Shown here: piece by piece, positions 12,101 to 56,684 of the stretch
Layout: each line of letters begins with the position of its first letter
Position numbering within the stretch: position 1 is the stretch's first letter
Assembly: GCA_030066755.1 (NCBI GenBank)
Contig: JASJAX010000045.1
Location: 1 to 60,367 of the forward strand
DNA: 60,367 nt
DNA from: Acidimicrobiia bacterium
Lineage (GTDB): Bacteria; Actinomycetota; Acidimicrobiia; Spongiisociales; UBA5794
Direction: 5' to 3'
Notes under the pieces: generated by a model
The model's input: the letters and a program-made list of their open reading frames with translations, nothing else
Database searches by the model: none
Told to the model about the DNA's origin: nothing
Position numbers and translations under genes: made by a program

Positions 12101-12466
12101 ATGACCCCGACGGAGATGCGTCAGCAAGCCGCCCGGAAGCGAGCTCGCGCAGCAGCGCTCGATTCGGCGGCGGCTCGGTTGCGGGTGATCGCCGATGAGA
12201 TTCGGCCGCTGCTGTCAGACCTTGCGTCGCGGTCGCGCGAGGTGTGGATCGGTCCGGCGGCATCCGATTTCGAACGTCGTGCAACGGAAGCCGACGCCGA
12301 GGTCAAGGTGCAAGCCGCGCTTCTGGTGTCGACGGCCGGCGACTTCGCCATCGATGCGCGGCGCCTCCGATCGGAGGCTGCGTCGCTCGACACCCAGGCA
12401 GCCACAGCCGAAGCCGCAGCGGCGCTCGGCTGCGACGCGTCACCGATGCCTGCCTCCATCGAGTAG
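12101..12466 (+). CDS. Second WXG100-like helical protein
   Basis: The 121-aa protein is predicted helical and has a W-I-G motif (EVWIGPAASDFERR). It lies 11 nt after the first WXG gene and 5 nt before eccC. Confidence 0.55.
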   Translation: MTPTEMRQQAARKRARAAALDSAAARLRVIADEIRPLLSDLASRSREVWIGPAASDFERRATEADAEVKVQAALLVSTAGDFAIDARRLRSEAASLDTQAATAEAAAALGCDASPMPASIE

Positions 12467-12471
12467 CCGCC

Positions 12472-24465: not shown

Positions 24466-24488
24466 ATGCTCTGACGAAGTCAGAGCAT
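24466..24488 (-). terminator. Hairpin overlapping the stop codon of the Pat-like gene
   Basis: ATGCTCTGAC-gaa-GTCAGAGCAT forms a perfect 10-bp stem. There is no U-tract. Confidence 0.4.
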
Positions 24489-27203: not shown

Positions 27204-27269
27204 GGCTCCTCGGCTCAGATCTGTCGCCACAAAACATATCGGTGTCCACCCATTCTCCCAAGGTGGGAC

Positions 27270-27340
27270 CAAGTCCCAAGTCTCGAGTCGCAAGTCCCAA
27301 GTAGCAGGTCTCAGGTCGCAGGTCGCAAGTCCCAGGTCCC
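27270..27340. repeat. Heptanucleotide tandem repeat, 10 units (CARGTNN)
   Basis: The units are CAAGTCC CAAGTCT CGAGTCG CAAGTCC CAAGTAG CAGGTCT CAGGTCG CAGGTCG CAAGTCC CAGGTCC. The array lies in the divergent Pat/proC intergenic region. Confidence 0.8.
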
Positions 27341-27389
27341 GGATGAGCCACGAGGCGGTCCTGGACGGGGCTCCCTCTATCATCTGCTC

Positions 27390-28220
27390 ATGCGACCGAC
27401 CGTTGCCATTCTCGGAGCCGGCTCGATGGGCCAGATCCTCGCCGAAGGACTCGTGCGCGCCGGCTGGGATCCCGGCGAGTTGATCCTGGCTGCCCGTCGG
27501 AAGGAGCGGGCCATCGAGGCTGAGCGACTCACCGCCGTGACCTGCGTGCTCGATGCGGCCGAGGCGGCAGCAGGGCGAGAGGTCGTCGTCATCGCCGTCA
27601 AGCCGAAGGACATGGCGGGTCTCCTTGGGCAGGTGGCTGAGGTCATCAATCCTGACCAAGTGGTCGTGAGCCTCGCTGCCGGCGTGCCACTGATGGCCAT
27701 CGAGGCTGCGCTTCCGGGCGTCCCCGTCGTGCGGTCGATGCCGAACACCCCGGCGGCCGTCGACGAGGGGATGACGGCGTACTGCCTCGGTGGAGCGGCC
27801 GACGAGGTCGCCGGAGACAAGGCGGCAGCGGTGCTCGCCGCCGTCGGCGAGACGATCGAGCTCAGCGAAGACCTCCTCGACGCCGTCACCGCCGTTTCGG
27901 GCACCGGACCGGCCTACATCTTCCTGCTCGCCGAAGCCTTGACCGAGGCCGCGATCCGAGAAGGTCTGCCGCACCATGCCGCCGAGCGCCTCGTCGATCA
28001 AACGGTGCGCGGCGCCGGCATCCTGCTCCAGTCCTCGGAGAAGAGCGCATTCCGCCTCCGGGCCGAAGTGACGTCCCCGGGCGGAACCACCGCTGCGGCG
28101 ATGCACACGCTCGAGAACGGTGGGTTCCGGGCTCTGCTCGAAGATGCGGTTCGTTCGGCGACGCAGCGGTCGCAGGAACTCGGCCGCGCCGCTGTCGAGG
28201 CCTCCAGCGAGGACCGCTGA
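27390..28220 (+). CDS. proC: Pyrroline-5-carboxylate reductase
   Basis: The start is at ATG 27390. The Rossmann motif is ILGAGSMGQIL. MPNTPAAV and SPGGTT motifs are present. Confidence 0.85.
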   Translation: MRPTVAILGAGSMGQILAEGLVRAGWDPGELILAARRKERAIEAERLTAVTCVLDAAEAAAGREVVVIAVKPKDMAGLLGQVAEVINPDQVVVSLAAGVPLMAIEAALPGVPVVRSMPNTPAAVDEGMTAYCLGGAADEVAGDKAAAVLAAVGETIELSEDLLDAVTAVSGTGPAYIFLLAEALTEAAIREGLPHHAAERLVDQTVRGAGILLQSSEKSAFRLRAEVTSPGGTTAAAMHTLENGGFRALLEDAVRSATQRSQELGRAAVEASSEDR

Positions 28221-28221
28221 G

Positions 28222-29136
28222 GTGACAACGGCGCTCGGGCGGACGGTCCTCGCGTTCACCGGGCATCCCCAGATCCAGCGGCTCTTCACCGAGACGAAGG
28301 CAGGGCGCGCCCTCTCCACCCGGTTTGTCGCCGGCGAAACCATCGATGATGCGATTCGTGTCGCTCGAGACCTCAATGCCACGGGCGCCACGGTGTCACT
28401 CGATCACCTCGGGGAGCACGTCTCCGAGCGTGACCAAGCCGTGGCTGCCCGCGACGATTACCTGGCCTGCCTGGACGAGATCGCGGCTGCAGGGATCGAG
28501 GGCAACATCTCGATCAAGCTGACCCAACTCGGGCTCGGTACCGACGACGAGCTGGCAACGGCGTCGCTCGGGGCACTGGCGGAGCGGGCTGCCCGCGTTG
28601 GGACTTCGGTCACGGTGGACATGGAAGAGAGCACCCACACCGAGATGACGATCGGCATCTTCGAGAAGGTCCAGGCCGAGTTCGGCAACCTCGGTGTTGC
28701 GATCCAGTCGTATCTCCGGAGGACGCCGGCCGATCTACAGCGTCTCGAAGCAGCGGGTGGGCACGTGCGGCTTTGCAAGGGTGCGTACGCCGAACCTCCC
28801 GACCTCGCACTGCAGTCGAAGGCCGACGTCAACGGGGCGTTCGATGCGCTGCTCGGCCGACTCATGGCATCGGAGCGGCTCACACCGGCGATCGCCACTC
28901 ACGACGCAACCCGAATCGGACTCGCTCAGCTGCTCGGTGCCGATCGCCACTCGCATTGGGAATTCCAGATGCTCTACGGGGTGCGGACGAAGCTGCAATC
29001 CCAGCTGCTGGGTGACGGCTACCGCCTCCGCATCTACGTTCCGTACGGCCAGGCCTGGTATCCGTATCTGACCCGGCGCCTGGCTGAACGTCCTGCCAAC
29101 CTCTGGTTCTTCCTGCGGGCCTTGCTGGGCCGGTAG
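28222..29136 (+). CDS. Proline dehydrogenase (monofunctional PRODH)
   Basis: The GTG start lies 1 nt after the proC stop. The PRODH TIM-barrel pattern is present (VSLDHLGE ... ISIKLTQLG ... VRLCKGAY ... ATHD ... EFQMLYG). Confidence 0.8.
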   Translation: MTTALGRTVLAFTGHPQIQRLFTETKAGRALSTRFVAGETIDDAIRVARDLNATGATVSLDHLGEHVSERDQAVAARDDYLACLDEIAAAGIEGNISIKLTQLGLGTDDELATASLGALAERAARVGTSVTVDMEESTHTEMTIGIFEKVQAEFGNLGVAIQSYLRRTPADLQRLEAAGGHVRLCKGAYAEPPDLALQSKADVNGAFDALLGRLMASERLTPAIATHDATRIGLAQLLGADRHSHWEFQMLYGVRTKLQSQLLGDGYRLRIYVPYGQAWYPYLTRRLAERPANLWFFLRALLGR

Positions 29137-29665: not shown

Positions 29666-30691
29666 ATGATCGAAGCACCACAACCACTGACCGAAGCTGC
29701 TCGGCTTGCCGCGTTGCGGACGTACGAGATTCTCGACACGTCCCCGGAGCAGGCGTACGACGACATCACCTTCCTTGCGTCGCAGATCTGCGATACGCCG
29801 ATTGCGCTCGTGAGCCTCGTCGACACCGACCGGCAGTGGTTCAAGTCACGGATTGGGCTCGACGCCACAGGAACGGATCGAAGCGTTGCGTTCTGTGCGC
29901 ATGCGATCCTCGATCCGAGCGAAGTGTTCGTTGTCGACGACGCAACCGAGGATGAGCGGTTCGCCGACAACCCGCTCGTCGCCGGTGATCCCGAGATCCG
30001 CTTCTACGCCGGGGCGCCGATCACGACTTCCGAGGGGCATGCCCTCGGAACGTTGTGCGTCATCGACACGAAGCCGCGCCGGCTCGGCCCGGATGAAGCC
30101 CGTGCGCTCCAGGCGCTGTCGCGCCAGGTGATGACGCAGTTGGAGTTACGGCGGGTCGTAGCCGAACTCGAGGCGCGTCACACCGAGTTGGAGGCGAGCC
30201 ACTCCGAGTTGGCTCACCTCAGCATGACCGATCCGTTGACTTCGCTCGTCAATCGGCGGGCGCTGATGGCGTTCCTCCATGCTGAACTCGAACGCCACAA
30301 GCGGTACGGGCACGACCTTGCAGTGGCGCTCATCGATCTCGACGACTTCAAGCCGTACAACGACGCCCACGGTCACGTGGCCGGCGACGAGGCGCTGGAG
30401 GCGATCTCACGCACGCTGCTGAATGTGAGTCGCCGGACCGACATCGCTGCGCGATACGGGGGCGACGAACTCATGCTCGTGCTGCCCGACACCAATCGGC
30501 ACGGCGCCGTTCAGATCGCAGAACGCTTCCGCACTGAGGTCGCAGGGCTTGCATGGCCGAAGGGCCGGATCACCGTGAGCGTCGGTGTCGCCGAGGCAAA
30601 CGAGAACACGCCGACACCCGAGTCGTTGATCGAAGCGGCCGACGCAGCGCTCTATCAGGCCAAGGCCAGCGGCCGAAACCGGGTGGCCTGA
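29666..30691 (+). CDS. GAF-domain diguanylate cyclase (GGDEF)
   Basis: The N-terminal GAF pattern includes FCAHAI and FYAGAP. A coiled linker follows. The GGDEF domain has the active-site motif RYGGDELML. Confidence 0.85.
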   Translation: MIEAPQPLTEAARLAALRTYEILDTSPEQAYDDITFLASQICDTPIALVSLVDTDRQWFKSRIGLDATGTDRSVAFCAHAILDPSEVFVVDDATEDERFADNPLVAGDPEIRFYAGAPITTSEGHALGTLCVIDTKPRRLGPDEARALQALSRQVMTQLELRRVVAELEARHTELEASHSELAHLSMTDPLTSLVNRRALMAFLHAELERHKRYGHDLAVALIDLDDFKPYNDAHGHVAGDEALEAISRTLLNVSRRTDIAARYGGDELMLVLPDTNRHGAVQIAERFRTEVAGLAWPKGRITVSVGVAEANENTPTPESLIEAADAALYQAKASGRNRVA

Positions 30692-30727: not shown

Positions 30728-32563
30728 CTAGCCGGACTCGGCATCCAGAGCCGTGGCGATCCGACGGTGCGCCTCCCAGATGGCGTCGGGAAGTCCGTCG
30801 AACTGCTCGAGGTGCTCCTGCCGGTGCACCATCTCCTGACGCCAGCGTTCCACGTCGATCGTGAGCAGCTGGTCGAGGTCGTCCTGATCGATGTCGAGTC
30901 CGGTCAGGTCGAGCTCGTCCTGCGTCGGGACGATGCCGACCGGCGTCTGGCGCCCGGTCACCAAGCCGTTCTTGAGCTGCATCATCCACACCAGGGCACG
31001 GAGATTCTCCCGGAAGCCGGGCCAGATGAACCGACCGTCGTCGTCACGTTGGAACCAGTTGACGTGGGCGAACATCGGCGGTTCAGCGGCCGCGCCGACG
31101 ACCTCGAGCCAGTGGGCGCCGTACGGACCTTCCGGATAGGAGATGAATGGCCGCAGGGACATGGGGTCGTAGCGGAGCTGACCTTCGACTCCCTCAGCGG
31201 CGAAGGTCGCTTCCGCACCCAGCGTAAGGCCGTCGTAGACGCCCTCGGCGACATCGGTCATCGCCCTTACCAACGGCTCCCGGTCGCGGGTCCTGCCGCC
31301 GAAGATGATTCCGTCGATGGGCACGCCCTCGGGAGCGTTGAAGTCCTCGGCGACGTTGGGGACATTCGCGAGGGATGTCGTGAATCGGCTGTTCGGATGC
31401 GCCCACGGGTCGTCGGCCTCATCCGGGCCACGATCTGCGATGACGCGACCCTTCCAGTCGCGCCATCCGGTGAGGTCCTCGGGGGGATCATCGGTGCGTC
31501 CCTCCCACCAGATTTCGCCGGTGTCGTGGTTGTAGGCGACGTTGGTGAACAGGGTTCGGGTGCCGGGAGCGATGGCCACCACAGCGGTGGGGTTGGTGTC
31601 CTCGTTGGTGTCCTTGCAGACGCCGAACACGCCGTACTCGGGATTCATGGCGCGCAGCACGCCCTCGTCGTCGACCCAGAGCCAGGCGATGTCGTCACCG
31701 AAGAACTCCACTTCATACCGGTCGCCGATGGCGTCCGGAGCGAGAGTCATGGCGAGGTTGGTCTTGCCGGAGGCACTCGGGAACCCGCCGCAGATGTGAT
31801 ACACCTGCCCGGCCTCCTTGTCGGTGATCCGCATCAGCAGGAACTGCTCGCTGAGGAATCCCGACTTCCAGCCGTCGTAGACGGCCTGGCGGAGCCCGTG
31901 GGCGATCTTCCCGAGGAGCGCGTTGCCACCGTACGAGGAGCCGAAATGGAGGATTGTTCGCTCGTCCGGAATCGTGACGAAGTAACGCTTGTCTTCGGGT
32001 GTGCCCTGTCCGAGGTTCTCGAGGTCGCCGGTCACGTGAACGGCGCGAACGAAGAAGTCGGGATCGGCCAGCTTGTTGAAGAGGTCGACGCCGACACGCG
32101 CCATTCGGATCATGTGCAGGACCACGGTGCGGTGGTCCGTCAGCTGGACGCCGGCGCCGTACTTCTCGAGCGGAGCCCCGGGAGGTGCCATGAGGTACGG
32201 GATGACGTACATCGTCTTGCCCTCGTTGGCGCCCTTCATGTGACCTTCGACGACGGGTCGGATCTCCGAGGCGAGTCGCCAGTTGTTGTACTCACCGCGA
32301 TCCGCCGGATCGCTGGTGGCCACGATGGTGCGTTCTTCGGAGCGGGCGGTGTCCTTGTAGTAGCTGCGGGAGTAGTAGAGGCCATCGCCGGCGGGAAAGA
32401 TCTCGCCTGCTTCGATCGACTCTGCGATCAGCCGGGCATCGTCGGCGGCGTCGACCACCTCGATCCGGGCAGCCCCAGTGTGCTCTGCCCACCGTTGCAC
32501 GTGCTCTCGGACGGCAGGGTTCGTGAGTCCCGCCTCTTGCAACGCCGTCGCTACGTCGATCAT
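30728..32563 (-). CDS. pckG: Phosphoenolpyruvate carboxykinase (GTP)
   Basis: The start is at ATG 32563 (MIDVATAL...). The kinase-1a P-loop reads FPSASGKTNLAM. The length of 611 aa is typical. Confidence 0.9.
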   Translation of the reverse strand: MIDVATALQEAGLTNPAVREHVQRWAEHTGAARIEVVDAADDARLIAESIEAGEIFPAGDGLYYSRSYYKDTARSEERTIVATSDPADRGEYNNWRLASEIRPVVEGHMKGANEGKTMYVIPYLMAPPGAPLEKYGAGVQLTDHRTVVLHMIRMARVGVDLFNKLADPDFFVRAVHVTGDLENLGQGTPEDKRYFVTIPDERTILHFGSSYGGNALLGKIAHGLRQAVYDGWKSGFLSEQFLLMRITDKEAGQVYHICGGFPSASGKTNLAMTLAPDAIGDRYEVEFFGDDIAWLWVDDEGVLRAMNPEYGVFGVCKDTNEDTNPTAVVAIAPGTRTLFTNVAYNHDTGEIWWEGRTDDPPEDLTGWRDWKGRVIADRGPDEADDPWAHPNSRFTTSLANVPNVAEDFNAPEGVPIDGIIFGGRTRDREPLVRAMTDVAEGVYDGLTLGAEATFAAEGVEGQLRYDPMSLRPFISYPEGPYGAHWLEVVGAAAEPPMFAHVNWFQRDDDGRFIWPGFRENLRALVWMMQLKNGLVTGRQTPVGIVPTQDELDLTGLDIDQDDLDQLLTIDVERWRQEMVHRQEHLEQFDGLPDAIWEAHRRIATALDAESG

Positions 32564-32715
32564 GATCGGACAACACCCCTGCCGCTTGACCAATTGGGAC
32601 GAGGACATCGTAATCCGCAGGACTGCGTCCCAGCGAGGCGAACCACTGGGTGCGTTGACGTGGCGATCCGAGCAGCTGGGCGAGTCGCTCAGGCGGCCCC
32701 GGTAACCTGGCGCAC

Positions 32716-34026
32716 ATGACCTCACATGCCCGGATTTCAACGGTCGTTGTCGCCCTCCTCCTGCTGCTTGTCGTCGCACCGGCGGCACTTGCGGCCGAAC
32801 CGGCCGATGTTGCCCAGGAGATTCGTGACGATGGTGTCTTCGTCGAGTCCGGCTCGGACCTCTCAGAGGCGGACGCCGGCGAACTCGTCGCCGCCGTGCG
32901 CAACCAGGGCGAGCGTTTTTCGATCGTCGTGCTGGCGGATGATCCCGGAAGTGGGGCCGTGGTCTTCGGTGATGCGGTCGTCGACCGACTGGGAGGCCTC
33001 GCCGGCCTCATCTTCGTGCTGACGCCGGACGATCTCGCCGTCGTCGGCAGCGGCGAGGTCTACACCCTCGATGAGATCGACGATGCCCTGGACGAGGCGA
33101 TCGACGCCGGCGGGTCCGACACCGCCTACGCCACGAACTTCGTCGAGGCGCTGACAGGGACCGACGTGGCGCTCGCTCCCGAGCCGAGCGAACCGGTGAC
33201 CTCGACCGACTCGGGCGGTGGCGGTGGGTTCGGCTTCATCGGGTTCATCGTGATCGTCGGTGGTGCACTGGTGCTCATCTTCTGGCTGGTGAGGCGGTCC
33301 AAGCGAAACGAGGACCTGCGTACCGAGAACCAACTGGCCGCTGCTCGGGCCGAGATCCAGGAGCAGATCGACGCCGTCGCCAATGATCTGCTGGACATGG
33401 AGGATGAGGTCCGGTCGGCCAACAACGACCGCGTCGACGATCTGTACAACGCGGCCGGCGAGGCGTACCAAGAGGCGTCGGATACGCTCGCCAAGGCGGA
33501 CTCTCCGCGCGAGTTCCTCGATATCGCCAACGACCTCGAGGTCGCCATCTGGCAGCTCGATTCGGCTGAAGCCCTCCTGGACGGCAAACAGCCGCCGCCG
33601 AAGCCAACGCCCGAGCGGCTCGAACCAGCCGCTGTACCTGGTCCGGAACCCGCCGGCGGCACCGGTGGCGGGCCGCTGGGCGTGCCACCGCGGCCCACGT
33701 ATCCGAAGGGCGAATACGCCCGGCGTCCGACCCGGCGGAGTTCCGGGATGTCCCCGAATCTGATCGAGATGCTGATCACCCTCGGCGCAGGCGCCTTGGC
33801 GGGCCGTTCGCGTGGTCCGGCACCGGCGCCCCGGGCGCGCACAACCCCAACGAGGAGGTCGCGGCCGTCCCGGCGTTCCGGCGGTGGGTTCCTGCCCAGT
33901 CCTTCGCGCAAGGGTTCGAGCTCGAGTCGCCCATCGCGCTCCAGTCGCTCGAGCCGCAGTTCCGGTCGTTCGAGCCGCCGCGGCACCGGTGGCCGCATCC
34001 GCACCGGCCGCAAACGCCGCAAGTAG
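32716..34026 (+). CDS. Membrane protein: extracytoplasmic TPM-like domain, TM helix, cytoplasmic coiled coil and an Arg/Ser-rich tail
   Basis: A signal peptide (VVALLLLLVVAPAALA) is followed by a domain of about 130 aa and a TM helix (FIGFIVIVGGALVLIFWLV). A helical region follows. The C-terminus reads RSSRSSRSSGRSSRRGTGGRIRTGRKRRK. Confidence 0.6.
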   Translation: MTSHARISTVVVALLLLLVVAPAALAAEPADVAQEIRDDGVFVESGSDLSEADAGELVAAVRNQGERFSIVVLADDPGSGAVVFGDAVVDRLGGLAGLIFVLTPDDLAVVGSGEVYTLDEIDDALDEAIDAGGSDTAYATNFVEALTGTDVALAPEPSEPVTSTDSGGGGGFGFIGFIVIVGGALVLIFWLVRRSKRNEDLRTENQLAAARAEIQEQIDAVANDLLDMEDEVRSANNDRVDDLYNAAGEAYQEASDTLAKADSPREFLDIANDLEVAIWQLDSAEALLDGKQPPPKPTPERLEPAAVPGPEPAGGTGGGPLGVPPRPTYPKGEYARRPTRRSSGMSPNLIEMLITLGAGALAGRSRGPAPAPRARTTPTRRSRPSRRSGGGFLPSPSRKGSSSSRPSRSSRSSRSSGRSSRRGTGGRIRTGRKRRK

Positions 34027-34142: not shown

Positions 34143-34862
34143 ATGAGCTTCTTCAGGCGCCTCTGGGGGTACATCACGACCCTGTTCCGGCGTACCGCCG
34201 AGAGTGCGATGAATCCCGAGGTCGAGATCGAACAGGCCATCAATGAGGCCAAGAAGCGAGATCAGCAGCTGCGGAACCAGGCCGCCAAGGTCGTGGCGCA
34301 CCGTACGCAACTGGAATCCAAGATGGAGAAGGCCGCCGACGACGTGGGCGAGGCCCGGGAGATGGCCAAGCAGGCGATCATGAAGGCCGAGGAGGCCAAG
34401 GCCTCGGGCGATGTCGAAGCTCAGGCCAAGTGGACGAAGGCCGCCCAGTCGATTGCCATGAAGCTCCAGGCGAGTGAGAACAACCTCAACACGCTGAAGG
34501 CCCAGTACGAGACGGCGTCGGTGCAGGCCGAGAAGGCGAAGACTGCGGTTCAGCAGAATGCGATGCGGGTCTCCGAGCTCGCCGCCAAGCGGTTGGAGCT
34601 GCTCGGCACGCTCGAAGCGGCGAAGATGCAGGAGTCGGTCAACAAGGCGGTCGATGCGCTGTCCAACACGATGGACTACGACATGCCGTCCCTCGAGAAG
34701 ATCGAGGAGAAGATCGAGTCCCGCAAGGCTGAGGCGATGGCCAAAGCCGAATTGCGAGAGGCGACGCCCGAAGGCTCCGAGTTGGAGCTGAAGGAGGCCA
34801 TCTCGATGGCCCAGGCCGATGCCAAGCTCGACGAACTGAAGGCGGAGCTCGGACTCAACTGA
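34143..34862 (+). CDS. pspA: PspA/IM30 family protein
   Basis: The protein is 239 aa and all coiled coil, with the family pattern MSFFRRLWGY...AINEAKKRDQQL. Confidence 0.85.
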   Translation: MSFFRRLWGYITTLFRRTAESAMNPEVEIEQAINEAKKRDQQLRNQAAKVVAHRTQLESKMEKAADDVGEAREMAKQAIMKAEEAKASGDVEAQAKWTKAAQSIAMKLQASENNLNTLKAQYETASVQAEKAKTAVQQNAMRVSELAAKRLELLGTLEAAKMQESVNKAVDALSNTMDYDMPSLEKIEEKIESRKAEAMAKAELREATPEGSELELKEAISMAQADAKLDELKAELGLN

Positions 34863-34991: not shown

Positions 34992-37900
34992 CTATTCGTC
35001 GAGGGAGCACTCGTCGAAGTAGTACGTGCACAGCTCCGCGTCGGTGAGTCCGCGGTGGAGGCGACTCTTGGCGATCTCGATGAGATCGTCGAGGTCCAGC
35101 GCCCACACCTGGGTCAGGCCGGAGATGCCGTCGTACCCAGACGTTGCGAGCATGTTCCCGTCCGGGCTCAGTGCCAGGTGGCTCACGAGGTAGCCCTGGT
35201 TGAGGAGGAGTTGCTCGCGTCCGGTCGCAGCGTCCCAGAACCGAATCGTCCCGTCCTCACCCGTACTGACGATTGTTGCGCCTGCGTCTGCCCAGTGAGC
35301 GTCTTCAACCGGCCCAACGTGGCCGCGCAATTCCTGAACGATGCGCTTGCTGGTGTAGTCCCAGATCTTGATCACGCCGTCGGATCCGGCGGTGAGAAGT
35401 GTCTCGCCATCGGGGCTGAAGCGAACGGCGCCGTGGAATGCCGGACCGTGGGTGCCGATGCGGGACGGCCTCTCTGTCCTGAGGTCCCAGATCAGGACGT
35501 TGTTCTCCCGGGCGCCGGTGGTGACTGCGAGCAGATTTCCGTCCGGGTGGAAGTCCACTCGGAATCCGGCTTTGGAGTTGCTCAATGACGGCGCCGAGAA
35601 GACTTCGTTGGCTGTCGCAACGTCCCAGACGCGGAGGATGGGCTGTCGCGTTTCTTGATGCCACACCGTTGCAGCAACCAACGTGCCGTCGTTGCTGAAG
35701 TCGACGCCGCCTCGTGCCGCGACGCCGCTGACCAGATGAGTCTCTTCGCCCGACTCGAGATCCCACAGAATCACCGAGCCATCAACCCCGGCGCCGTCCC
35801 AGGCAGTCGTAACGAGCTTGGTGCCATCCGGGTTGAAGGCCGCTCCTTCGGCCGCCCCCAAACCACCACTGACCAGCCGGCCCGCGCCCTCGAGCACCGT
35901 CGCCTGCTCCCATGTGGTCGTGTTGAAGAGGGCAACGTGTTGGTCGGAGTCCCACGATGTTGCGAGATTCGATCCGTCGGGAGAGAACACAATGGCCGCC
36001 CCCGATGTTGGGTCGATGACACCCCACTCACCTCCACTTCTGCGTGAGATATCCCAGACGCGGGTGCGTTCGGTACCTTCCCAGTGGGTCGTCGTGACGA
36101 GCTTCGTTCCGTCGGGGCCGAACTCCATATCGCCGATGAAATCGGTATGGCCATACAAACGCTCGATGAGTCTGAAGCCTGTACGCGAGACTCGCCACAG
36201 CTCGAGATCTCCGCCGGATCCGCCTATTGCGATGAGATCATCGACGGCGCTGACTGCCGTCGTTTGGATTGAGCCCTCGGACGGTTGTGTGCGAACGAGC
36301 GACCCATCTCCGGCGTCGTACAAGCGGATGGTCCCGTCGTACGAAGTGGTCACGACGTGCTCTCCGCTCGAGAGGAACTTGGCGGTGAGCGTGGTGAACG
36401 GGGCCTCGAGGCGCACGGCGATCTCGCCCGATGCGACATCGAGGATCCAGGCCTCGGTGTCGCCCGGACCGGCGACAGCCAGGTGTTCGCCGCGCGGGCT
36501 GAAGGTCAAATCACGCACGTGCCACCCGGTCGTCTCGGTGCTCCAAAGCATCTGGCCCGGGTCATCGGCTTCCCGGAAATCCGGACCGGGACCCGAATCC
36601 TCGAATACTCGTTCGACGTCCCACACCCGGACCCAACCGTCGGTGTTCCCGGCGGCGAGTAGCGCGCCGTCCCGGCTGAAAGAAATGGCCGTGATCTCCG
36701 GCTTCATGCCGATGACCTGGCTCGACAACAGCTCGCCGGTGGCCGCGTCGAAGATCGCGATTTCGCTGATCTCGGGGCCCACGGCAGCGACATACCGCCC
36801 GTCCGCGCTTGCGGCAATTGGAGTATTTGCAAGAAGGCGAACGTCGCCGCCCAGCTGGAAGGGGTCGTACCTGACAGAGCTCGTACCGGTAGCGGGATCC
36901 CACCGCTCAGTTCGCGACCCGGCGATCACGACATCGCCGTCGGGGAGCACGGCCGCATCCCATCCGCTCGGCAGGTCGAGGTACGGCCGCGCCGCCATCA
37001 CGGCTGCGTGCAACGCTTCGGTCGCCTCCCGGGTCACACCCTCGCCGGCGTCGCGGGTAACGCCGGCTGCCTCGAGCGCAAGGAGGATCGCCAACTCCGG
37101 GTCGATCGTCTGTGCAGCAGCCGATGCCGACGCCAGTTCCCTTGCACGAGATGCCCGGTGGGCGGTTGCCAGCCCTTCTGCGCTGATCTCAGCGGCCTTC
37201 TGCAGCCGCTCTGCCTCCGCCGCGCTCGCTTCTGCCTCTGCTGCGCTCACCTCGGCAGCTGCTTGCTGCGTCTGCGCCTCTGTCGCGTTTCGCTCGGCCG
37301 CCTGCTGGTTCACGAACGCCACGACCGCAAGCACGACAGCAACTACGGCAGCGCAGGCGAATCCCGCCATCACGATGCGTCGCCTTTCACGCTGTCGCCG
37401 GTCCAGGTCGTCGGCTTGCGTCCGGCTCGCCTGGAGGTACTCGGATTCCTCACTCGTCAATGACAGGTCCGTCTCCTGTGCCCAGGTCTCGAAGTGGTCG
37501 AGCCGGCCTCCCGACAGGAGGTATGCCGGCTCACGCGACTGGTCCCGCCACTCGGCAACGGCCTCGTGAAGCCGTCGCTCCAGGACGAGATCGTCGCGGC
37601 GGTCATCGATCCAGGACCGCAGCCTCGGCCAGCGATCGAGGATTGCCTCGTGGGCGACCTCGACGGTTGGCGTACGCGTGGTTGGATCCCGGTCGAACGT
37701 CAGCAGTCGACTTTCGCCGAAGACCGCCAGGACCCGATCGAGGGCTGCGGTCTCCACCGGAAGGCGGTGGAACTCGTCGAGGGCGACTCGGCGCTTCGTG
37801 CAGTCGCCACCCTCGTCAACGGCCACGAGTCGGAGGAACAGCTGTCGCGCCGCCTCTCTGGCCGGCTCGTCGAGGTGGTTGAAGCGGTCCTCGGCTCGCG

Positions 37901-40259
37901 CTCCGAGCGCCCCGAGCACGCCGCCCGACGCCTCATATGTGGATCGTTCGATCCGCCCTTCGCTGCGTCGCTCGAACAGCTCGGTGAGCGCGAACTCCAG
38001 GAGCGGGAGACCACCCGGCTGGTCACGGACGTCGCGTACGAGGTCAGTGTCGATGCCGGCCTCGAGTTCGATCCCGACCGCCTGGGCCGGGCGGGTGATC
38101 ACCGCAACGAGTTCCGGCTCGGACAGCGGGGTCACCATCACTGCAGCGTGGCGCACGAGGTCGCCGAATCTGGCGTGCGATAGCGGCCGATCGAGGAAGT
38201 CCGCACGCAACGTGATCACGACGCGGATCCGGTTGCCTGGATCCGTTGCGAGCTGCGCAAGCGTGTCCATGAAGGTCCGACGTATGTCGTCCGCCGGGCT
38301 GAGGGTGAAGAGCTCCTCGAACTGATCAACGATGAGCAGGAGCCGACTCGTCGCCGGGAGCAATCCGCGGACCTTGGCCACGGCATTTGCCGGGTCGTTG
38401 CGAAGACGAGCACCGAGATCGGCAACGGGCTCGACGGCGACGCCGAGGAGCGCCGCTTCGAGCTCGCCGAACGGATCGCCACCAGGGAAGAGATCGGCGA
38501 TCAGCCAACCCCCGTCGAGTCGTCCGGATCGGATAGCCGGGACCAGGCCGGCATGAACGGCACTCGACTTGCCGCTGCCCGAGGCTCCAATGACGGCGAC
38601 GAGACCATGGTGTGCGACGGCATCGAGGAGATCGTTGACGAGGGATGCGCGACCGAAGAAGTCCCCGGCGTCAGCTTCCGAGAACGCTCGGAGGCCTTTG
38701 TACGGGTTGCGGATGGTCTCGGGCTCCGAAGCAGGGGCGCGGCGTGGTGCAATCAGTCGGCGGAGGTCGTCGAGGAACTCGTCGATGGAGCGATACCGGT
38801 CGGCCGGTTGGGGTGCGATGGCCGTTCCGACCACATCGGCCAGCTCCGGCTCGAGTTCGGCCAGAGCCGGACCGGTGGAGTCCGGCTTGGGCACGTCGCC
38901 GGCCAACGCAGCCAGCGCAAGCATGCCGAGGCCGTGGACGTCAGACCGGACGGTCGCCGTGTGTCCTGCCGACTGTTCGGGAGAGGTGAAGGTCGAGGCT
39001 TCGGTGTCCCGATCCCCCAGCCGGCGTGCGATACCGAAGTCGGCGAGGTAGGCATCCCCGTCCTCGCTGAGGAGCACGTTGCCCGGATGAACGTCGCAGT
39101 GCACGACCCCGCGGCTGTGGGCGTACGCCAACGCCGAGCCGACCTGTTCGACGATCCGCAGCGACTTCTTGGGCTCGAGCGGTCCGGTCCCAAGCGTGTG
39201 CCACAGGTTCCGCCCTCGCATGAGCGGCATCACGAGGTACGCCGCGTCCGGCTCGCGCCAGAAGTCGTAGAGCGGCACGATGTGCGGATGGGCCAGCTGA
39301 GCAACGATTCGTGCCTCCGACTCGAATCGCTGGACGAACTCGGCATGATTCGCCACCTCTGCGGGTACCGCCTTGATCGCCACCTCACGGCCAACACTCG
39401 GTTGGTACGCCCGGTACGTGACGCCCGAGGCGCCTTCGCCGATCGGGCCGCGCAGCTCGTAGCCACGTACGCGCGAAGGTGCAGTCTCGACGGGTGAGGG
39501 ACTCAGCAACACCGGATCCTGCTGGAGGATGCGATCCTCCAGGTTGCGCAGTTCGGCTGAGGGCTCGATGCCCAGCTCAGCCAGGACGTCGCCGGCCCGA
39601 GTGAACGCACGGAGCGCATCCGCCTGTCGTCCCGATCGGTAGAGCGCGACCATGAGTTGGCCCCACATCCGCTCGCGGAATGGGTGCCGCTCGATGAGGG
39701 TCTCGAGTTCTCCGATCAACGAAGCGTGGCGACCGAGTCGCAGCTCGCAGTCGACACGGAGCTCGAAGGCCGTCGACTGCAGTTCCTCGAGGCGGCGGAT
39801 TTCGGCTTGGGCAAAGGGCTCGTAGGCCACGTCCGCGTAGGGTCGGCCACGCCACAGCTGGAGGGCGTCGTTGAGGGTCGACAGCGCGCCCTCTGGATCG
39901 GACTGAGCCGCACTCTCGGCCGCTTTGAGCCGGTCCTCGAACAGGGTGGCGTCGAGCGCGGCAGGGTCGACGTGCAGCATGTAGCCGGGTGAGCGGGTCT
40001 CGAGGAGGCTCGACTTCGCCCCAGTCGCACGGTCCGGCTCCAGCGCCTTGCGCAGATGGGCCACGTGTACCTGGAGCGTCTTTCCGCCGCCGGCTGGCGG
40101 ATCATCACCCCACAGCTCATCGAGAATCCGATCGGTGGCCAACACCTCGTTGGCGTGGATCAGCAGCAGGGCGAGCAGAGCTCGTTGCTTCGGGCGCCCG
40201 AGGTCGATCGGTTGTTTGGCTTCCCCCGCTTCGATCGTGCCCAGCACCCGGAATTCCAT
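34992..40259 (-). CDS. Multidomain signalling protein: SARP (OmpR-type wHTH + BTAD), Ser/Thr protein kinase, STAND-type P-loop NTPase, TM helix, coiled coil, and about 14 WD40 repeats
   Basis: I place the start at ATG 40259 (MEFRVLGTIEAG). The BTAD region includes LWRGRPYADV and ALYRSGRQADAL. Kinase motifs are GEGASGVTY, VAIK, HCDVHPGN and ADFG. The NTPase begins NPYKGLRAFSEADAGDFFGR and carries GASGSGKSS and LLIVDQFEE. The TM helix is encoded at 37308-37370 and is preceded by RRQRERRR. WD40 units carry WD dipeptides through to the C-terminus. Confidence 0.85.
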   Translation of the reverse strand: MEFRVLGTIEAGEAKQPIDLGRPKQRALLALLLIHANEVLATDRILDELWGDDPPAGGGKTLQVHVAHLRKALEPDRATGAKSSLLETRSPGYMLHVDPAALDATLFEDRLKAAESAAQSDPEGALSTLNDALQLWRGRPYADVAYEPFAQAEIRRLEELQSTAFELRVDCELRLGRHASLIGELETLIERHPFRERMWGQLMVALYRSGRQADALRAFTRAGDVLAELGIEPSAELRNLEDRILQQDPVLLSPSPVETAPSRVRGYELRGPIGEGASGVTYRAYQPSVGREVAIKAVPAEVANHAEFVQRFESEARIVAQLAHPHIVPLYDFWREPDAAYLVMPLMRGRNLWHTLGTGPLEPKKSLRIVEQVGSALAYAHSRGVVHCDVHPGNVLLSEDGDAYLADFGIARRLGDRDTEASTFTSPEQSAGHTATVRSDVHGLGMLALAALAGDVPKPDSTGPALAELEPELADVVGTAIAPQPADRYRSIDEFLDDLRRLIAPRRAPASEPETIRNPYKGLRAFSEADAGDFFGRASLVNDLLDAVAHHGLVAVIGASGSGKSSAVHAGLVPAIRSGRLDGGWLIADLFPGGDPFGELEAALLGVAVEPVADLGARLRNDPANAVAKVRGLLPATSRLLLIVDQFEELFTLSPADDIRRTFMDTLAQLATDPGNRIRVVITLRADFLDRPLSHARFGDLVRHAAVMVTPLSEPELVAVITRPAQAVGIELEAGIDTDLVRDVRDQPGGLPLLEFALTELFERRSEGRIERSTYEASGGVLGALGARAEDRFNHLDEPAREAARQLFLRLVAVDEGGDCTKRRVALDEFHRLPVETAALDRVLAVFGESRLLTFDRDPTTRTPTVEVAHEAILDRWPRLRSWIDDRRDDLVLERRLHEAVAEWRDQSREPAYLLSGGRLDHFETWAQETDLSLTSEESEYLQASRTQADDLDRRQRERRRIVMAGFACAAVVAVVLAVVAFVNQQAAERNATEAQTQQAAAEVSAAEAEASAAEAERLQKAAEISAEGLATAHRASRARELASASAAAQTIDPELAILLALEAAGVTRDAGEGVTREATEALHAAVMAARPYLDLPSGWDAAVLPDGDVVIAGSRTERWDPATGTSSVRYDPFQLGGDVRLLANTPIAASADGRYVAAVGPEISEIAIFDAATGELLSSQVIGMKPEITAISFSRDGALLAAGNTDGWVRVWDVERVFEDSGPGPDFREADDPGQMLWSTETTGWHVRDLTFSPRGEHLAVAGPGDTEAWILDVASGEIAVRLEAPFTTLTAKFLSSGEHVVTTSYDGTIRLYDAGDGSLVRTQPSEGSIQTTAVSAVDDLIAIGGSGGDLELWRVSRTGFRLIERLYGHTDFIGDMEFGPDGTKLVTTTHWEGTERTRVWDISRRSGGEWGVIDPTSGAAIVFSPDGSNLATSWDSDQHVALFNTTTWEQATVLEGAGRLVSGGLGAAEGAAFNPDGTKLVTTAWDGAGVDGSVILWDLESGEETHLVSGVAARGGVDFSNDGTLVAATVWHQETRQPILRVWDVATANEVFSAPSLSNSKAGFRVDFHPDGNLLAVTTGARENNVLIWDLRTERPSRIGTHGPAFHGAVRFSPDGETLLTAGSDGVIKIWDYTSKRIVQELRGHVGPVEDAHWADAGATIVSTGEDGTIRFWDAATGREQLLLNQGYLVSHLALSPDGNMLATSGYDGISGLTQVWALDLDDLIEIAKSRLHRGLTDAELCTYYFDECSLDE

Positions 40260-40445
40260 CGCCGCTCCCGGCGGACGCGTGCAGCTCTCCATCGCAAGAA
40301 CGCACCTTCCAGTGTGCACCACAACGAACCGGGCAGCTAGACCCCATCAGCCTCCGCCGACCCTCCGACCAGGCGTTTTGGCGCGTTAAGCGGGAGGTAA
40401 CCCGGCGGAAAGGGTCCGCTAGGCGCTCCGGCGGACGGTGGCGGT

Positions 40446-41105
40446 ATGAAGACCGCAGCCATCACCACCACCGTTCTGGCCCTGGCCATCAGCCTCCAAG
40501 CCGATGCGTTCACCGCGGGCCCCGAGCTCACCACCGAACCCGAGCCCACGGTCATCACGATCGAGGCTCCAACCCATGATCACGCCGAGCATGCGCTGTG
40601 GGCGCTGCGGCGACTCGATCAGGCGGGCCTCGATCTGCCGACCATGACCATCGTCTTCCACGACAACTACGAGGCCTGCGGGATGCGTCAGGGCATGCTG
40701 CGGATCGCCGGCGACCAGATCACGCTCGATGAGTGCGAGCGACTGCCGCACGACATCCGTCGCAGCTTGCTGCACGAGCTGGTCCATGCCTGGGACTACG
40801 GGACGGATGCCCTCGCCGACGAGCTGCGAAACGATCTCCTGCGGCTCCGCAACCTCCAGTCGTGGGAGGGAGCGCATCTCGAATGGGAGCACCGTGGTGC
40901 AGAGCATGCGGCCGAGATCATCGCCTGGGGTCTGATGGAAGCGGAGATCCGGATCCCGTCCTCTGTCTGGGATGCGGGTTCCAACGGCACCGAGGAGCTG
41001 GCCGAGGCGTATCGGCTCCTCACGGGCAGCGATCCGCTGTGGCTGGGAACCGGACCAGAGAACACGGTGCGACCGGTCCCGAAAGGTGGGAGCGAGACCG
41101 CATGA
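40446..41105 (+). CDS. Secreted HExxH-motif protein (putative zincin-like metallopeptidase)
   Basis: A signal peptide (MKTAAITTTVLALAISLQADA) and the motif LLHELVHAWDYG are present. I do not securely recognise a family. Confidence 0.55.
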   Translation: MKTAAITTTVLALAISLQADAFTAGPELTTEPEPTVITIEAPTHDHAEHALWALRRLDQAGLDLPTMTIVFHDNYEACGMRQGMLRIAGDQITLDECERLPHDIRRSLLHELVHAWDYGTDALADELRNDLLRLRNLQSWEGAHLEWEHRGAEHAAEIIAWGLMEAEIRIPSSVWDAGSNGTEELAEAYRLLTGSDPLWLGTGPENTVRPVPKGGSETA

Positions 41106-41153
41106 CGTCAGAAGGTGCGCTCTAGGTAGCCGGGGCTCGTAACCTCTGGATTT

Positions 41154-42710
41154 GTGAGGATCCATCGACGGAGCGCAGCGCTGCTGGTGTTCAGCATCCT
41201 GGCCGGTGCTTGCACCGCCGCTGCCGGACAGACGGCTACGGAGCCTCCCCTCACGACCCTGCCGCGACTCGCCGTCGACACGACGAGCCCTGCGCCACCA
41301 CCATCGACCGCCGCACCCGCAACGACTCCCTCAACCACGAGCGCACCGACGACCACCACGACGCTCCCGGAACGGTTCGTCCCGGCCGGATCCGTCGGCG
41401 AGCCGTGGGGGAGTGTCGACGGACTCCTCATGTTCCGGGGCAATCCGACCCGCACCTACTACGGCACCGGTCCGGTGCCGGCGGACCCGGCACTCCTGTG
41501 GCGCTTTCCGGATTCGGCGATGTGCAGCATCTCGCGAATCGGTGGTCAGGACGTCGAGTGGTGCGGGACCGGGTGGACGGGCCAACCGGTGGTGTGGGAA
41601 CGACCCGACGGCGTCACTGAGGTCATCTTCGGCGCATACGACCAGCGGATCCACTTCGTCGATGCTGCGACTGGTCTGAGGACCCGACCGGACTTCCCGG
41701 TCGGCGACATCGCCAAGGGCTCGGTGACGCTCGATCCCGATGGCTACCCATTGCTGTTCGCCGGTTCGCGCGACCCGAACTACCGGATCATTGCGCTCGA
41801 TCGGGACGTTCCAACCGAGCTGTGGTCGCTGCCTGCCACCGCCGTGAGAGGAATGTGGAACAACGACTGGGACTCCAACGCCGTGATCATCGACGACTTC
41901 CTTCTGATCGGCGGCGAGAACAGCTGGTGGTTTGCCGTTGAGTTGAACCGGACCATCGACGGCGATGGACTCGTCCAGATCGCACCCGAGATCGTCGCCT
42001 CGATCCCGGCCTTCACCGACGAGTTGGTGGCTGCAGTCGGCACGCAGCAATCCATCGAGAGTTCTACTGCCGTCTACGGATCGACCGCCTACTTCGCCAA
42101 CTCTGCAGGGCGGATCGTCGGCATCGACATTTCCCACCTGCCCGAGCGCGAAGCGGACATCGTGTTCGACTTCTGGGCGGGCGACGACGTCGACGCCACG
42201 ATCGTCATCGACGAGTTCGGCATGCTGTACGTCGCTGCCGAGGAGGACCTGCGCACTCCACGAGCCGCGGAGCTGGGTCAACTCATGAAGCTCAACCCAC
42301 AGAGTCCGGATGATCCGCTCGTGTGGAGTCTGTCCATCCCCGGATCGGACCTGGTCGACGGGGGCGTTTGGGCGACACCCGCCCTGGACGGAGAGATGCT
42401 CTACGTGCCAACCAACCCCGGAGAGCTGCTCGCGGTGGACACGGAGACAGGCGAGGTCGTGTGGCGGGATGACGTCGGGGCCCACGCGTGGTCGTCGCCG
42501 GTCATCATCGACGAGTCGCTCATCGTTGCGGTCGACTGCGACATCCGGCCTGCTTTGCGGGCATACGACATCAGCGATCCGATGCAACCGCAGCAGCAAT
42601 GGGAGGTCGCCGCAACGGCCGGGTGCATCGAGTCCACACCGGCAGTGTGGAACGGCGTCCTCTACGTCGGTGCCCGCGACGGCTTCTTCTACGCCATCGG
42701 GGATCGTTGA
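41154..42710 (+). CDS. PQQ-like/BamB-like beta-propeller lipoprotein
   Basis: The lipobox is SILAGAC and is followed by a Thr/Pro-rich linker. Repeated propeller blades show the W...P and G..Y.....G.l.A.D..tG pattern. Confidence 0.7.
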   Translation: MRIHRRSAALLVFSILAGACTAAAGQTATEPPLTTLPRLAVDTTSPAPPPSTAAPATTPSTTSAPTTTTTLPERFVPAGSVGEPWGSVDGLLMFRGNPTRTYYGTGPVPADPALLWRFPDSAMCSISRIGGQDVEWCGTGWTGQPVVWERPDGVTEVIFGAYDQRIHFVDAATGLRTRPDFPVGDIAKGSVTLDPDGYPLLFAGSRDPNYRIIALDRDVPTELWSLPATAVRGMWNNDWDSNAVIIDDFLLIGGENSWWFAVELNRTIDGDGLVQIAPEIVASIPAFTDELVAAVGTQQSIESSTAVYGSTAYFANSAGRIVGIDISHLPEREADIVFDFWAGDDVDATIVIDEFGMLYVAAEEDLRTPRAAELGQLMKLNPQSPDDPLVWSLSIPGSDLVDGGVWATPALDGEMLYVPTNPGELLAVDTETGEVVWRDDVGAHAWSSPVIIDESLIVAVDCDIRPALRAYDISDPMQPQQQWEVAATAGCIESTPAVWNGVLYVGARDGFFYAIGDR

Positions 42711-56006: not shown

Positions 56007-56684
56007 TCAGTGACCGAGGTCGGCGTCGCCGGGCGTGATCAGTCCGCTCTCGTAGGCAAACGCCACTGCCTGGGCCCGGTTGGTCAGGCCGAGTTTGGTG
56101 AGGATGCTGGAGACGTGGGATTTGACGGTTGCCGCGCCGACGAAGAGTGCTTCGGCTATCTCCAGGTTGCTGGAACCAGCCGCGACGGCAACCAGGACTT
56201 CGCTCTCGCGCTCCGTGAGGCGGTCGAGGCGGGCGACGACCGATGCGTCGAGGGTCGGCGGGGTGGCAAATCGGCTGATCAGTCGTCGCGTCACCGACGG
56301 CGCCAATAGCGCGCCGCCATCCGCCACGGTCCGTACGGCGGCGACCAGGTCCTCCGGGGAGATGTCTTTGAGAACGAAGCCACTTGCGCCGGCACGCAAC
56401 GCCTCGTACACGTACTCGTCCGGATCAAACGTGGTGAGGATCACCACTTTGACTGGCCAATCGGCGGAGTCGACGATCGCCTTGGTTGCCGCCAGGCCGT
56501 CCATCTGGGGCATTCGAATGTCCATGAGGATCACATCGGGACGATGTATCCGTGCGATCTCGATCGCGGCGGCGCCGTCACCGGCCTCGGCGACGACGTC
56601 GATATCGTCCTGGAGCCCGAGCATGGCGGCGAAACCGCCCCGCACCAGGGCCTGATCATCGACGACGGCGACCTTGATGCTCAC
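56007..56684 (-). CDS. NarL/LuxR-family response regulator
   Basis: The receiver domain shows VAVVDDQ and LMDIRMPQMDG. The LuxR HTH reads LTERESEVLVAVAAGSSNLEIA. A GTGA overlap joins it to the kinase gene. Confidence 0.9.
   Translation of the reverse strand: MSIKVAVVDDQALVRGGFAAMLGLQDDIDVVAEAGDGAAAIEIARIHRPDVILMDIRMPQMDGLAATKAIVDSADWPVKVVILTTFDPDEYVYEALRAGASGFVLKDISPEDLVAAVRTVADGGALLAPSVTRRLISRFATPPTLDASVVARLDRLTERESEVLVAVAAGSSNLEIAEALFVGAATVKSHVSSILTKLGLTNRAQAVAFAYESGLITPGDADLGH

Follow-up and report, generated by a model that had tools for sequence, protein, structure and literature searches.

One chain carries a SARP module, a Ser/Thr kinase, an nSTAND1 NTPase and WD40 propellers in Acidimicrobiia: a predicted autoregulated membrane receptor

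A 60,367-nucleotide contig of an Acidimicrobiia bacterium (GenBank JASJAX010000045.1; the whole stretch is called the window here) carries on its minus strand, at 34992..40259, a gene for a single protein of 1755 residues. The chain runs from a SARP module (winged helix plus BTAD) through a Hanks-type kinase, an nSTAND1 nucleoside triphosphatase (NTPase), a hydrophobic helix and a helical stalk to two seven-bladed WD40 propellers. We propose, at a probability of about 0.55, that this gene encodes an autoregulated receptor, anchored in the membrane by a single pass, in which a signaling pathway is contained in one protein. The features of the gene are as follows.

34992..40259, minus strand: complete coding sequence, 1755 residues plus stop (stop codon 34992-34994), from the open reading frame (ORF) list and its translation
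39975..40196, minus strand: OmpR-type winged helix (residues 22-95), first half of the SARP module; Pfam Trans_reg_C, 1.3e-13, cut-off 26.2 bits
39525..39956, minus strand: BTAD, bacterial transcriptional activation domain (residues 102-245), second half of the SARP module; Pfam BTAD, 4.8e-40
38730..39461, minus strand: Hanks-type Ser/Thr kinase (residues 267-510); Pfam Pkinase over residues 267-465, 4.4e-37
37527..38705, minus strand: nSTAND1 NTPase module (residues 519-911); Pfam PF20703, 9e-112, with Walker A GASGSGKSS and Walker B LLIVDQFEE
37311..37376, minus strand: predicted single transmembrane (TM) helix (residues 962-983), IVMAGFACAAVVAVVLAVVAFV, after RRQRERRR; hydropathy peak 2.91
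36987..37310, minus strand: helical stalk or linker (residues 984-1091); AlphaFold2 helices at residues 998-1049, 1054-1070 and 1077-1089
35100..36986, minus strand: tandem WD40 beta-propellers (residues 1092-1720), 14 blades, presumed sensor; Pfam WD40 families and model
34995..35099, minus strand: conserved C-terminal tail (residues 1721-1755) with a Cys pair, consensus ...TRxLTxxECxxY.....C; homolog conservation

A first-pass annotation of this DNA, made by reading the sequence, had assigned a winged helix, a BTAD, a kinase, a STAND NTPase and WD40 repeats, and Pfam backs all five; the strings that it quoted, NPYKGLRAFSEADAGDFFGR, GASGSGKSS and LLIVDQFEE, are all found in the translation. 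The BTAD scores 137.7 bits against a cut-off of 22.1, directly follows the DNA-binding domain and is modeled there with a predicted local distance difference test (pLDDT) score of ∼85 to 94. By both defining domains, the winged helix and the BTAD, the protein is a SARP. Among PDB sequences, the best solved-structure match of the SARP module is EmbR (2fez; 5e-37, residues 2-297), followed by AfsR (8k60; 2e-35). In Foldseek, this part aligns with the AfsR SARP of the transcription-initiation complex 8k60 at a TM-score of 0.88 and 38% identity, and EmbR also matches. The kinase (Pkinase, 128.3 bits against a cut-off of 31.7) matches PknA, PknB and StkP by both sequence and fold, with PknI also among the matches.

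The P-loop NTPase, previously described as STAND-like, is indeed a STAND protein and specifically an nSTAND1 module, not the NB-ARC of AfsR: it scores 374.9 bits against a cut-off of 27.1 and covers positions 1-378 of the 379-position profile. Its layout, with a C-terminal repeat sensor (14 WD40 blades) and N-terminal output modules (SARP and kinase), is present as in nSTAND1 proteins. BTAD, Pkinase, nSTAND1 and WD40 occur together in each of the 120 best clusters at 90% identity, in proteins of 1620 to 2150 residues. The Walker residues are invariant in 120 of 120 homologs (G558, S560, G561, G563, K564, S565 and S566 in motif A; D645, E648 and E649 in motif B). The stalk holds a conserved DPELAILLALEA motif and the invariant residues L1042, D1053, L1060, A1082, L1083 and R1091.

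The estimate of about 14 WD40 repeats is borne out by an AlphaFold2 model of residues 941-1755 (pLDDT 84.6; predicted template modeling score [pTM] 0.78), in which 56 strands make 14 blades that end in a short helical tail. Ahead of the propellers, the hydrophobic segment lies within a long helix (942-991), after which the model places another long helix (998-1049) and two short ones. The best Foldseek folds for this C-terminal half were the Nostoc WD40 protein 2ymu, Apaf-1 (3shf and 3sfz) and tandem-propeller proteins. In a separate model of residues 1-955 (pLDDT 77, pTM 0.35), disordered linkers (251-261 and 506-536) connect three well-folded modules; kinase matches dominated the Foldseek search with this cytoplasmic model, and no closest solved structure was obtained for the nSTAND1 module. 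None of the NCBIfam equivalogs passes its cut-off, the AfsR model SARPRegAfsRStmc reaching 174.6 against 1430 and covering only residues 2-260.

Could so long a chain have arisen artifactually, with separate SARP, kinase and STAND-WD40 genes fused by misassembly or a frameshift? Nothing was found in favor of this beyond a general concern about a metagenome-type contig of high-GC DNA with many long spurious ORFs; a 583-residue plus-strand shadow ORF (35818-37569) lies inside the studied gene. The probability of such a fusion is nonetheless negligible. An identical product of 1766 residues is encoded on an independent NCBI contig, with the 1755-residue version in the same cluster. All modules are colinear in more than 120 clusters and in 150 representatives at 50% identity, with an isolate genome and a closed chromosome among the sources, and linker lengths are conserved among homologs. 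The first-pass annotation had named an artifactual fusion, or profiles that failed, as what would overturn it; an identical protein exists elsewhere and all profiles match, and we consider the fusion excluded by the independent copy and the colinear homologs.

The translation confirms a single uninterrupted frame of 1755 residues at 34992-40259 that starts at ATG 40259. The mechanical ORF (34992..40322, minus strand) is 1776 residues long with a GTG start, and one database copy of the protein begins 11 codons ahead of ATG 40259. The start at ATG 40259 (MEFRVLG...) coincides with the N-terminal consensus of the homologs, MEFRVLGPLEV, and GGGAG lies 5 nucleotides (nt) upstream of it.

40292 (ATG) and 40322 (GTG), minus strand: alternative upstream starts

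When each module was used as a tblastn query in search of paralogs in the window, only the gene itself matched.

The hydrophobic helix is central to the proposed topology. The TM segment that had been noticed ahead of the WD40 repeats is found at residues 962-983 and has an equivalent in 120 of 120 homologs, always as a single uncharged segment of 20 to 24 residues, ∼320 residues past Walker B, with a run of Arg before it. Flanking Lys and Arg residues average 6.7 on the N-terminal and 3.9 on the C-terminal side, the former exceeding the latter in 115 of 120 proteins; here the counts are 6 and 1, a pattern in keeping with the positive-inside rule. The helix is also found in relatives that lack the SARP module, namely the kinase-nSTAND1-WD40 proteins of Chloroflexota and the kinase-nSTAND1 proteins of Myxococcota, and in others with neither SARP nor kinase, from Streptomyces poonensis and Acidobacteriota. 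A TM-like helix after the NTPase was seen in every complete relative examined.

Cysteines differ on the two sides of the helix. Past it, their number is even (2, 4, 6 or 8) in 113 of 120 homologs; before it, in 67 of 120. The two cysteines of the C-terminal pair are present in 117 and 119 of the 120 proteins, and those of a second pair, HCxxxxxC, occur together in 53 proteins and never one alone. Paired cysteines are typical of disulfide-bonded exported proteins of Actinobacteria, and this even, pairwise gain and loss suggests an extracytoplasmic sensor. The chain is thus probably oriented N-in/C-out, with its first 961 residues in the cytoplasm and the stalk and propellers outside the membrane, because DNA binding, kinase and NTPase all need the cytoplasm and the helix would span the membrane.

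The second body of evidence comes from promoters. SARP boxes are direct repeats 11 or 22 bp apart, the 3′ repeat lying 8 bp from the −10 element (PMC10936776). We looked for direct repeats of ≥9 nt at 11-nt spacing ≤300 nt upstream of family genes. They occurred at 8 of 22 loci in a first set of SARP-bearing genes and at 12 of 24 in an independent metagenome set, giving 20 of 46 combined; the 22-nt spacing was found at 9 of 46. Other spacings averaged 3.7 of 46 (Poisson P ∼3e-9 for the 11-nt excess). Repeats at 11-nt spacing were present at 5 of 45 loci in a coding control (Fisher P = 8e-4), at 2 of 18 loci of SARP-less relatives (P = 0.019), and at 1 of 46 and 3 of 38 loci in the bins farther upstream from −600 to −300 and from −1200 to −900. 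Almost half of the repeats (12 of 25) begin between −100 and −50, and TAGGCT, CAGGCT or TAGCCT often stands 7 to 11 nt past them. Some orthologs have repeat cores in common: CTGCGAAC at loci L094 and L152, and TTAGG at L005 and L088. Repeats at 12-nt spacing were also frequent (10 of 46); these look codon-periodic and lie inside upstream genes, and we left them uninterpreted. At the level of the family, the repeats argue for a functional activator in the SARP module and for autoregulation in many members.

The gene in the window has a candidate repeat of its own.

40349..40369, minus strand: candidate SARP box, direct repeat GTCGGAGGGT c GGCGGAGGCT at 11-nt spacing, −110 to −90 from ATG 40259
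40334..40339, minus strand: weak −10-like hexamer TAGCTG, 8 nt past the 11-nt unit of the 3′ repeat, putative and read from the sequence

This 11-nt-spaced pair is meaningful only because of the family-wide spacing test. A generic repeat finder run on the upstream 250 nt returned short two-copy repeats only, and a terminator scan around the gene detected none. The pattern CGGAGGN5CGGAGG has no second site in the window; no regulon could be predicted.

These observations can be put together into one mechanism. A ligand would bind or cluster the external propellers, and the signal would reach the nSTAND1 module by way of stalk and TM helix; the module would exchange nucleotide and oligomerize as other STAND switches do. 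Oligomerization would juxtapose the kinase and SARP modules of neighboring chains. The kinase would then autophosphorylate in trans and may add phosphate to the NTPase or the SARP module as well, either in cis or in trans, as AfsK does to AfsR; in that system, AfsK phosphorylates residues that include the Walker A Thr and raises the ATPase activity and oligomerization of AfsR (PMC10936776). Side-by-side SARP dimers would bind direct repeats at 11-nt spacing, which take the place of the −35 element, and would recruit RNA polymerase, so that promoters could be activated while the protein stays tethered to the membrane, like ToxR or CadC. One predicted target is the gene's own promoter, which would amount to positive autoregulation.

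Several observations weigh against this reading. The evidence for the topology consists of hydropathy, flank charge and cysteine parity, all three in agreement. Of these, parity is partly inherited through shared ancestry, which inflates the count, and flank charges in the Myxococcota relatives are ambiguous on inspection. WD40 propellers are classically cytosolic proteins. The relative placement of the cytoplasmic domains is predicted without confidence, at the pTM of 0.35 given above. On the promoter side, 26 of 46 family genes have no repeat by the criterion used, and the control bin from −900 to −600 is rather high, at 9 of 44 (loci L002-L152); those repeats could be boxes of divergent neighbor promoters, or noise. 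CGGAGGN5CGGAGG occurs in the window only at the gene's own promoter, with 1.69 matches expected by chance (≤1 mismatch), and is not significant alone; the −10-like TAGCTG is imperfect, without the final T, and a scan for sigma-70-type consensus promoters around the gene gave no match. Finally, the catalytic loop of the kinase reads HCDVHPGN instead of the canonical HRDxKPxN, the consensus of 120 homologs being HRDVKPAN. The Arg-to-Cys change in HRD is seen in 2 of 120 homologs and the loop Lys-to-His change in 13 of 120, and this member's kinase may be altered in activity: it could be weakly active or inactive. The Myxococcota proteins L079, L080, L081 and L086, in which the TM-like helix is followed by only a ∼150-residue coiled coil rich in Lys, Ala and Glu, with no propeller, gave no help on topology.

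The unusual loop raises an alternative in which the protein is still a membrane receptor but this member's kinase acts as a scaffold or pseudokinase, the output coming solely from STAND-driven clustering of SARP modules, with no phosphotransfer. In addition to the two changes just named, the catalytic Asp is Asn in 11 of 120 family members, and ∼33 of 120 have Thr, His, Ser, Arg or Glu in place of the loop Lys; because such substitutions recur across the 120 homologs, loss of canonical kinase residues is tolerated. In vitro, phosphorylation affects AfsR activation only modestly (PMC10936776). Yet this protein retains the Gly-rich loop GEGASGVTY, the VAIK Lys296, the αC Glu315, Asp389, Asn394 and the DFG Asp407, along with several Ser and Thr residues in the activation segment. 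Its closest homolog, P0002, reads HRDVHPGN, and the DxHPGN loop is therefore a conserved trait of a subclade and not decay. The kinase is also as conserved as the NTPase (50% versus 53%). On balance, we consider a receptor without phosphotransfer unlikely, and keep to the one-chain receptor, with a kinase whose activity may be altered.

A second alternative concerns the fate of the sensor. The protein could be a cytoplasmic, Apaf-1-like STAND of the conflict or defense type, an option that the first-pass annotation had raised, in which the hydrophobic helix is oligomerizing or peripheral, the WD40 repeats sense an invader inside the cell and the kinase, with or without the SARP module, is the effector. 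The nSTAND1 clade was defined in predicted counter-invader systems with S/T/Y kinases as N-terminal effectors (PMC8195603). The propellers resemble Apaf-1, and Apaf1-like WD40 sensors occur in defense STANDs (PMC13581612). The sensor is the fastest-evolving part of the protein, and the kinase domain matches models of the defense kinases PD-T4-6 and mad6. These PADLOC matches, however, are generic and, among those listed (the best 25 of 32), all lie in the kinase domain; four neighboring ORFs had no PADLOC match. The segment with its poly-Arg N-terminal flank is, in every member, that of a typical signal anchor, and the paired cysteines past it fit an oxidizing compartment. SARP boxes in the family's own promoters point to a transcription factor.

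Gene context does not support a defense role either: neighbors are of the housekeeping kind, and none is conserved. A Pfam scan of 35 further ORFs in the window found phosphoenolpyruvate carboxykinase (PEPCK), a GAF-GGDEF protein, proline dehydrogenase, a Pat-like acetyltransferase, PspA, a PQQ-type propeller, a methyltransferase, pyruvate:ferredoxin oxidoreductase, AlkZ and a histidine kinase. Five homolog neighborhoods, likewise made up of housekeeping genes, shared nothing and had no conserved partner. PP2C or FHA genes, defense genes and biosynthetic gene clusters were found neither among the scanned ORFs of the window nor in the five homolog neighborhoods. The gene is a stand-alone unit in an ordinary chromosome. 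Taken together, a cytoplasmic defense protein seems to us quite improbable, more so than a pseudokinase, and the membrane receptor is the reading that we carry forward.

Next to the 3′ end of the receptor gene stands the following neighbor.

34143..34862, plus strand: PspA/IM30 gene, Pfam PspA_IM30 3.1e-27, a neighbor only and not shown to be part of the system

It converges with the receptor gene across a 129-nt gap, and this pairing is absent beside the examined homologs. Neither of the ORFs directly upstream of the gene, 40419-41165 on the minus strand and 40446-41105 on the plus strand, matched anything in Pfam or PADLOC; in the independent contig, it is the ORF on the divergent strand that was annotated as a gene.

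Other genes of the contig merit a brief record. Signaling genes include a GAF-GGDEF diguanylate cyclase (29666-30691, plus strand) and a HisKA_3 histidine kinase (56681-57826, minus strand). Two ORFs of ∼650 to 690 residues overlap nearly fully (30728-32788, minus strand, and 30767-32719, plus strand); only the minus one is a gene, for GTP-dependent PEPCK (5e-121), and the plus one is a high-GC shadow. A 1356-residue FtsK/SpoIIIE-family multi-ATPase, EccC-like (12244-16314, plus strand), is followed by an Abhydrolase_8 protein (16209-17870, plus strand), with an MMPL-family transporter nearby (6367-9084, plus strand), and these genes may form a type VII secretion-like locus. A 692-residue protein (21631-23709, plus strand) has RTX calcium-binding nonapeptide repeats (HemolysinCabind, 5.7e-23), unusual for a high-GC contig of the actinobacterial type. 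A 1303-residue Pat-like protein (24480-28391, minus strand) combines GNAT with an ADP-forming acyl-CoA synthetase and has ∼400 N-terminal residues without a Pfam match.

The architecture recurs widely. Each of the 150 best representatives at 50% identity aligns colinearly with SARP, kinase and nSTAND1, at >719 bits. "Unusually complete signaling device," the phrase of the first-pass annotation, stands as a description and fails as a claim of rarity, with at least 150 clusters at 50% identity sharing the architecture. Most members are from Acidimicrobiia or elsewhere in Actinomycetota. They were found in Acidimicrobiia, one of them on a closed chromosome, in Ilumatobacteraceae, Nitriliruptoraceae, Geodermatophilaceae and Thermoleophilia, and in a few Chloroflexia. 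One member is from a cultured organism, Jiangella aurantiaca (E1262_08340). In species-representative genomes, the best relatives are 50 to 51% identical and belong to metagenome-assembled genomes of Acidimicrobiia or Actinomycetes. In databases, members go by no name other than "BTAD domain-containing putative transcriptional regulator" or "protein kinase." Conservation is lowest in the propellers, with 27 to 31% identity to the query versus 42 to 53% for the cytoplasmic modules.

In a rough neighbor-joining tree of NTPase domains, most SARP-bearing proteins form one clade nested among kinase-only proteins, suggesting that the SARP module was added to a preexisting kinase-nSTAND1-TM-WD40 chassis. 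Additions have been made elsewhere in the chain too. A subgroup of ∼1920 residues (P0103, P0021 and P0024; loci L003 and L100-L108) has an insert resembling a class III nucleotidyl cyclase (LLTDVEDST...KRVGDG...; residues ∼270-470) between BTAD and kinase, adding a possible second-messenger output to the same chain. In a subgroup of ∼2100 residues (P0006, P0008, P0012, P0019, P0020 and P0029), a Kelch-type propeller follows both WD40 propellers.

Among known systems, the AfsR-type large SARPs (Streptomyces AfsR and PolY, which are SARP plus NB-ARC STAND plus TPR, with a separate kinase, AfsK) likewise begin with a SARP module at the N terminus and continue with a STAND NTPase and then a repeat sensor. 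They also have 11-nt-spaced direct repeats next to the −10 element as target sites, predicted here from family promoters, and Ser/Thr phosphorylation is part of their circuit, the kinase being in the same chain here. The comparison with SARP-NTPase-TPR and kinase-NTPase proteins made in the first-pass annotation holds up to this point. Nevertheless, the protein is not an AfsR-type large SARP, because its NTPase is nSTAND1 and not NB-ARC and its sensor is WD40 and not TPR, and its NCBIfam AfsR score, given above, falls far short of the cut-off. In addition, a predicted TM helix lies between NTPase and sensor, so that the autoinhibition by sensor contact with the nucleotide-binding oligomerization domain proposed for AfsR would be inapplicable, and the gene is unlinked to a biosynthetic cluster.

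EmbR and PknH of Mycobacterium tuberculosis (SARP plus FHA, and a transmembrane receptor kinase) follow the same logic, a membrane Ser/Thr kinase that controls a SARP. Theirs are two proteins coupled by FHA, whereas our protein is a single chain that lacks FHA and has a STAND switch in addition. The nSTAND1 counter-invader proteins (Kaur, Iyer, Burroughs and Aravind 2021) have the same PF20703 NTPase, and N-terminal fusions to S/T/Y kinases were noted there; the clade was named in that year in predicted counter-invader systems that have kinases among their effectors (PMC8195603). That paper mentions no BTAD/SARP fusions (BTAD and SARP have 0 occurrences in it), no conserved TM helix and no external sensor; the 2020 conflict-systems paper and the 2024 SARP review likewise mention neither fusions of SARP to a kinase, nSTAND1 or WD40 nor the TM helix. 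Unlike those systems, the examined homologs here have no conflict-system gene context beside them. Apaf-1 and the bacterial NACHT/AP-ATPase-WD40 proteins likewise place tandem WD40 propellers behind a STAND NTPase (Foldseek 3shf, 3sfz and 2ymu). They are soluble, and the sensor folds back on the NTPase; here, the usual STAND autoinhibition through sensor-NTPase contact would not apply, because a TM helix separates the two, and of all implications of the proposal this is the most unusual.

PknD-type proteins consist of a Hanks kinase, a TM segment and an extracellular beta-propeller of NHL repeats, and ToxR and CadC are membrane-bound activators of the OmpR family. What they appear to share with our protein is the logic of one TM helix between an external sensor and a cytoplasmic output, either kinase or winged helix. 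This is an analogy, with no specific sequence relationship past the generic kinase and winged-helix folds, and we know of no STAND module in PknD, ToxR or CadC. The combination of SARP, kinase, nSTAND1 and WD40 is absent from the 2024 SARP classification (PMC10972967), and our literature search found no paper on this combination or on an NTPase-TM-WD40 layout; one apparent match for BTAD turned out to be the letters "btad" within a DOI.

We think it about an even bet that the protein belongs to a family of "transmembrane STANDs," in which the cytoplasmic membrane separates an NTP-driven oligomerization switch from its repeat sensor, and an extracellular signal passes through STAND and Ser/Thr kinase to promoter DNA, with autoregulation. 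On this broader proposal, the TM-after-NTPase layout would be ancestral to an entire clade of nSTAND1 proteins across Actinomycetota, Chloroflexota, Myxococcota and Acidobacteriota, and the SARP module a later addition in Actinomycetota. If the topology is true, STAND switches could be driven across a membrane without direct contact between sensor and NTPase, which would widen the accepted mechanism of the superfamily.

SARPs control antibiotic production and development in actinomycetes. In a 2024 study of AfsR, no inducer was known and the role of phosphorylation was unclear (PMC10936776). The joint control of a large SARP by a STAND ATPase, sensor repeats and Ser/Thr phosphorylation is testable in this compact one-chain family, for which the predicted autoregulated promoter is a ready reporter and the cultured J. 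aurantiaca member makes experiments feasible. In uncultured Acidimicrobiia from soil and aquatic habitats the family is abundant, and it may be a major route of environmental sensing in these bacteria.

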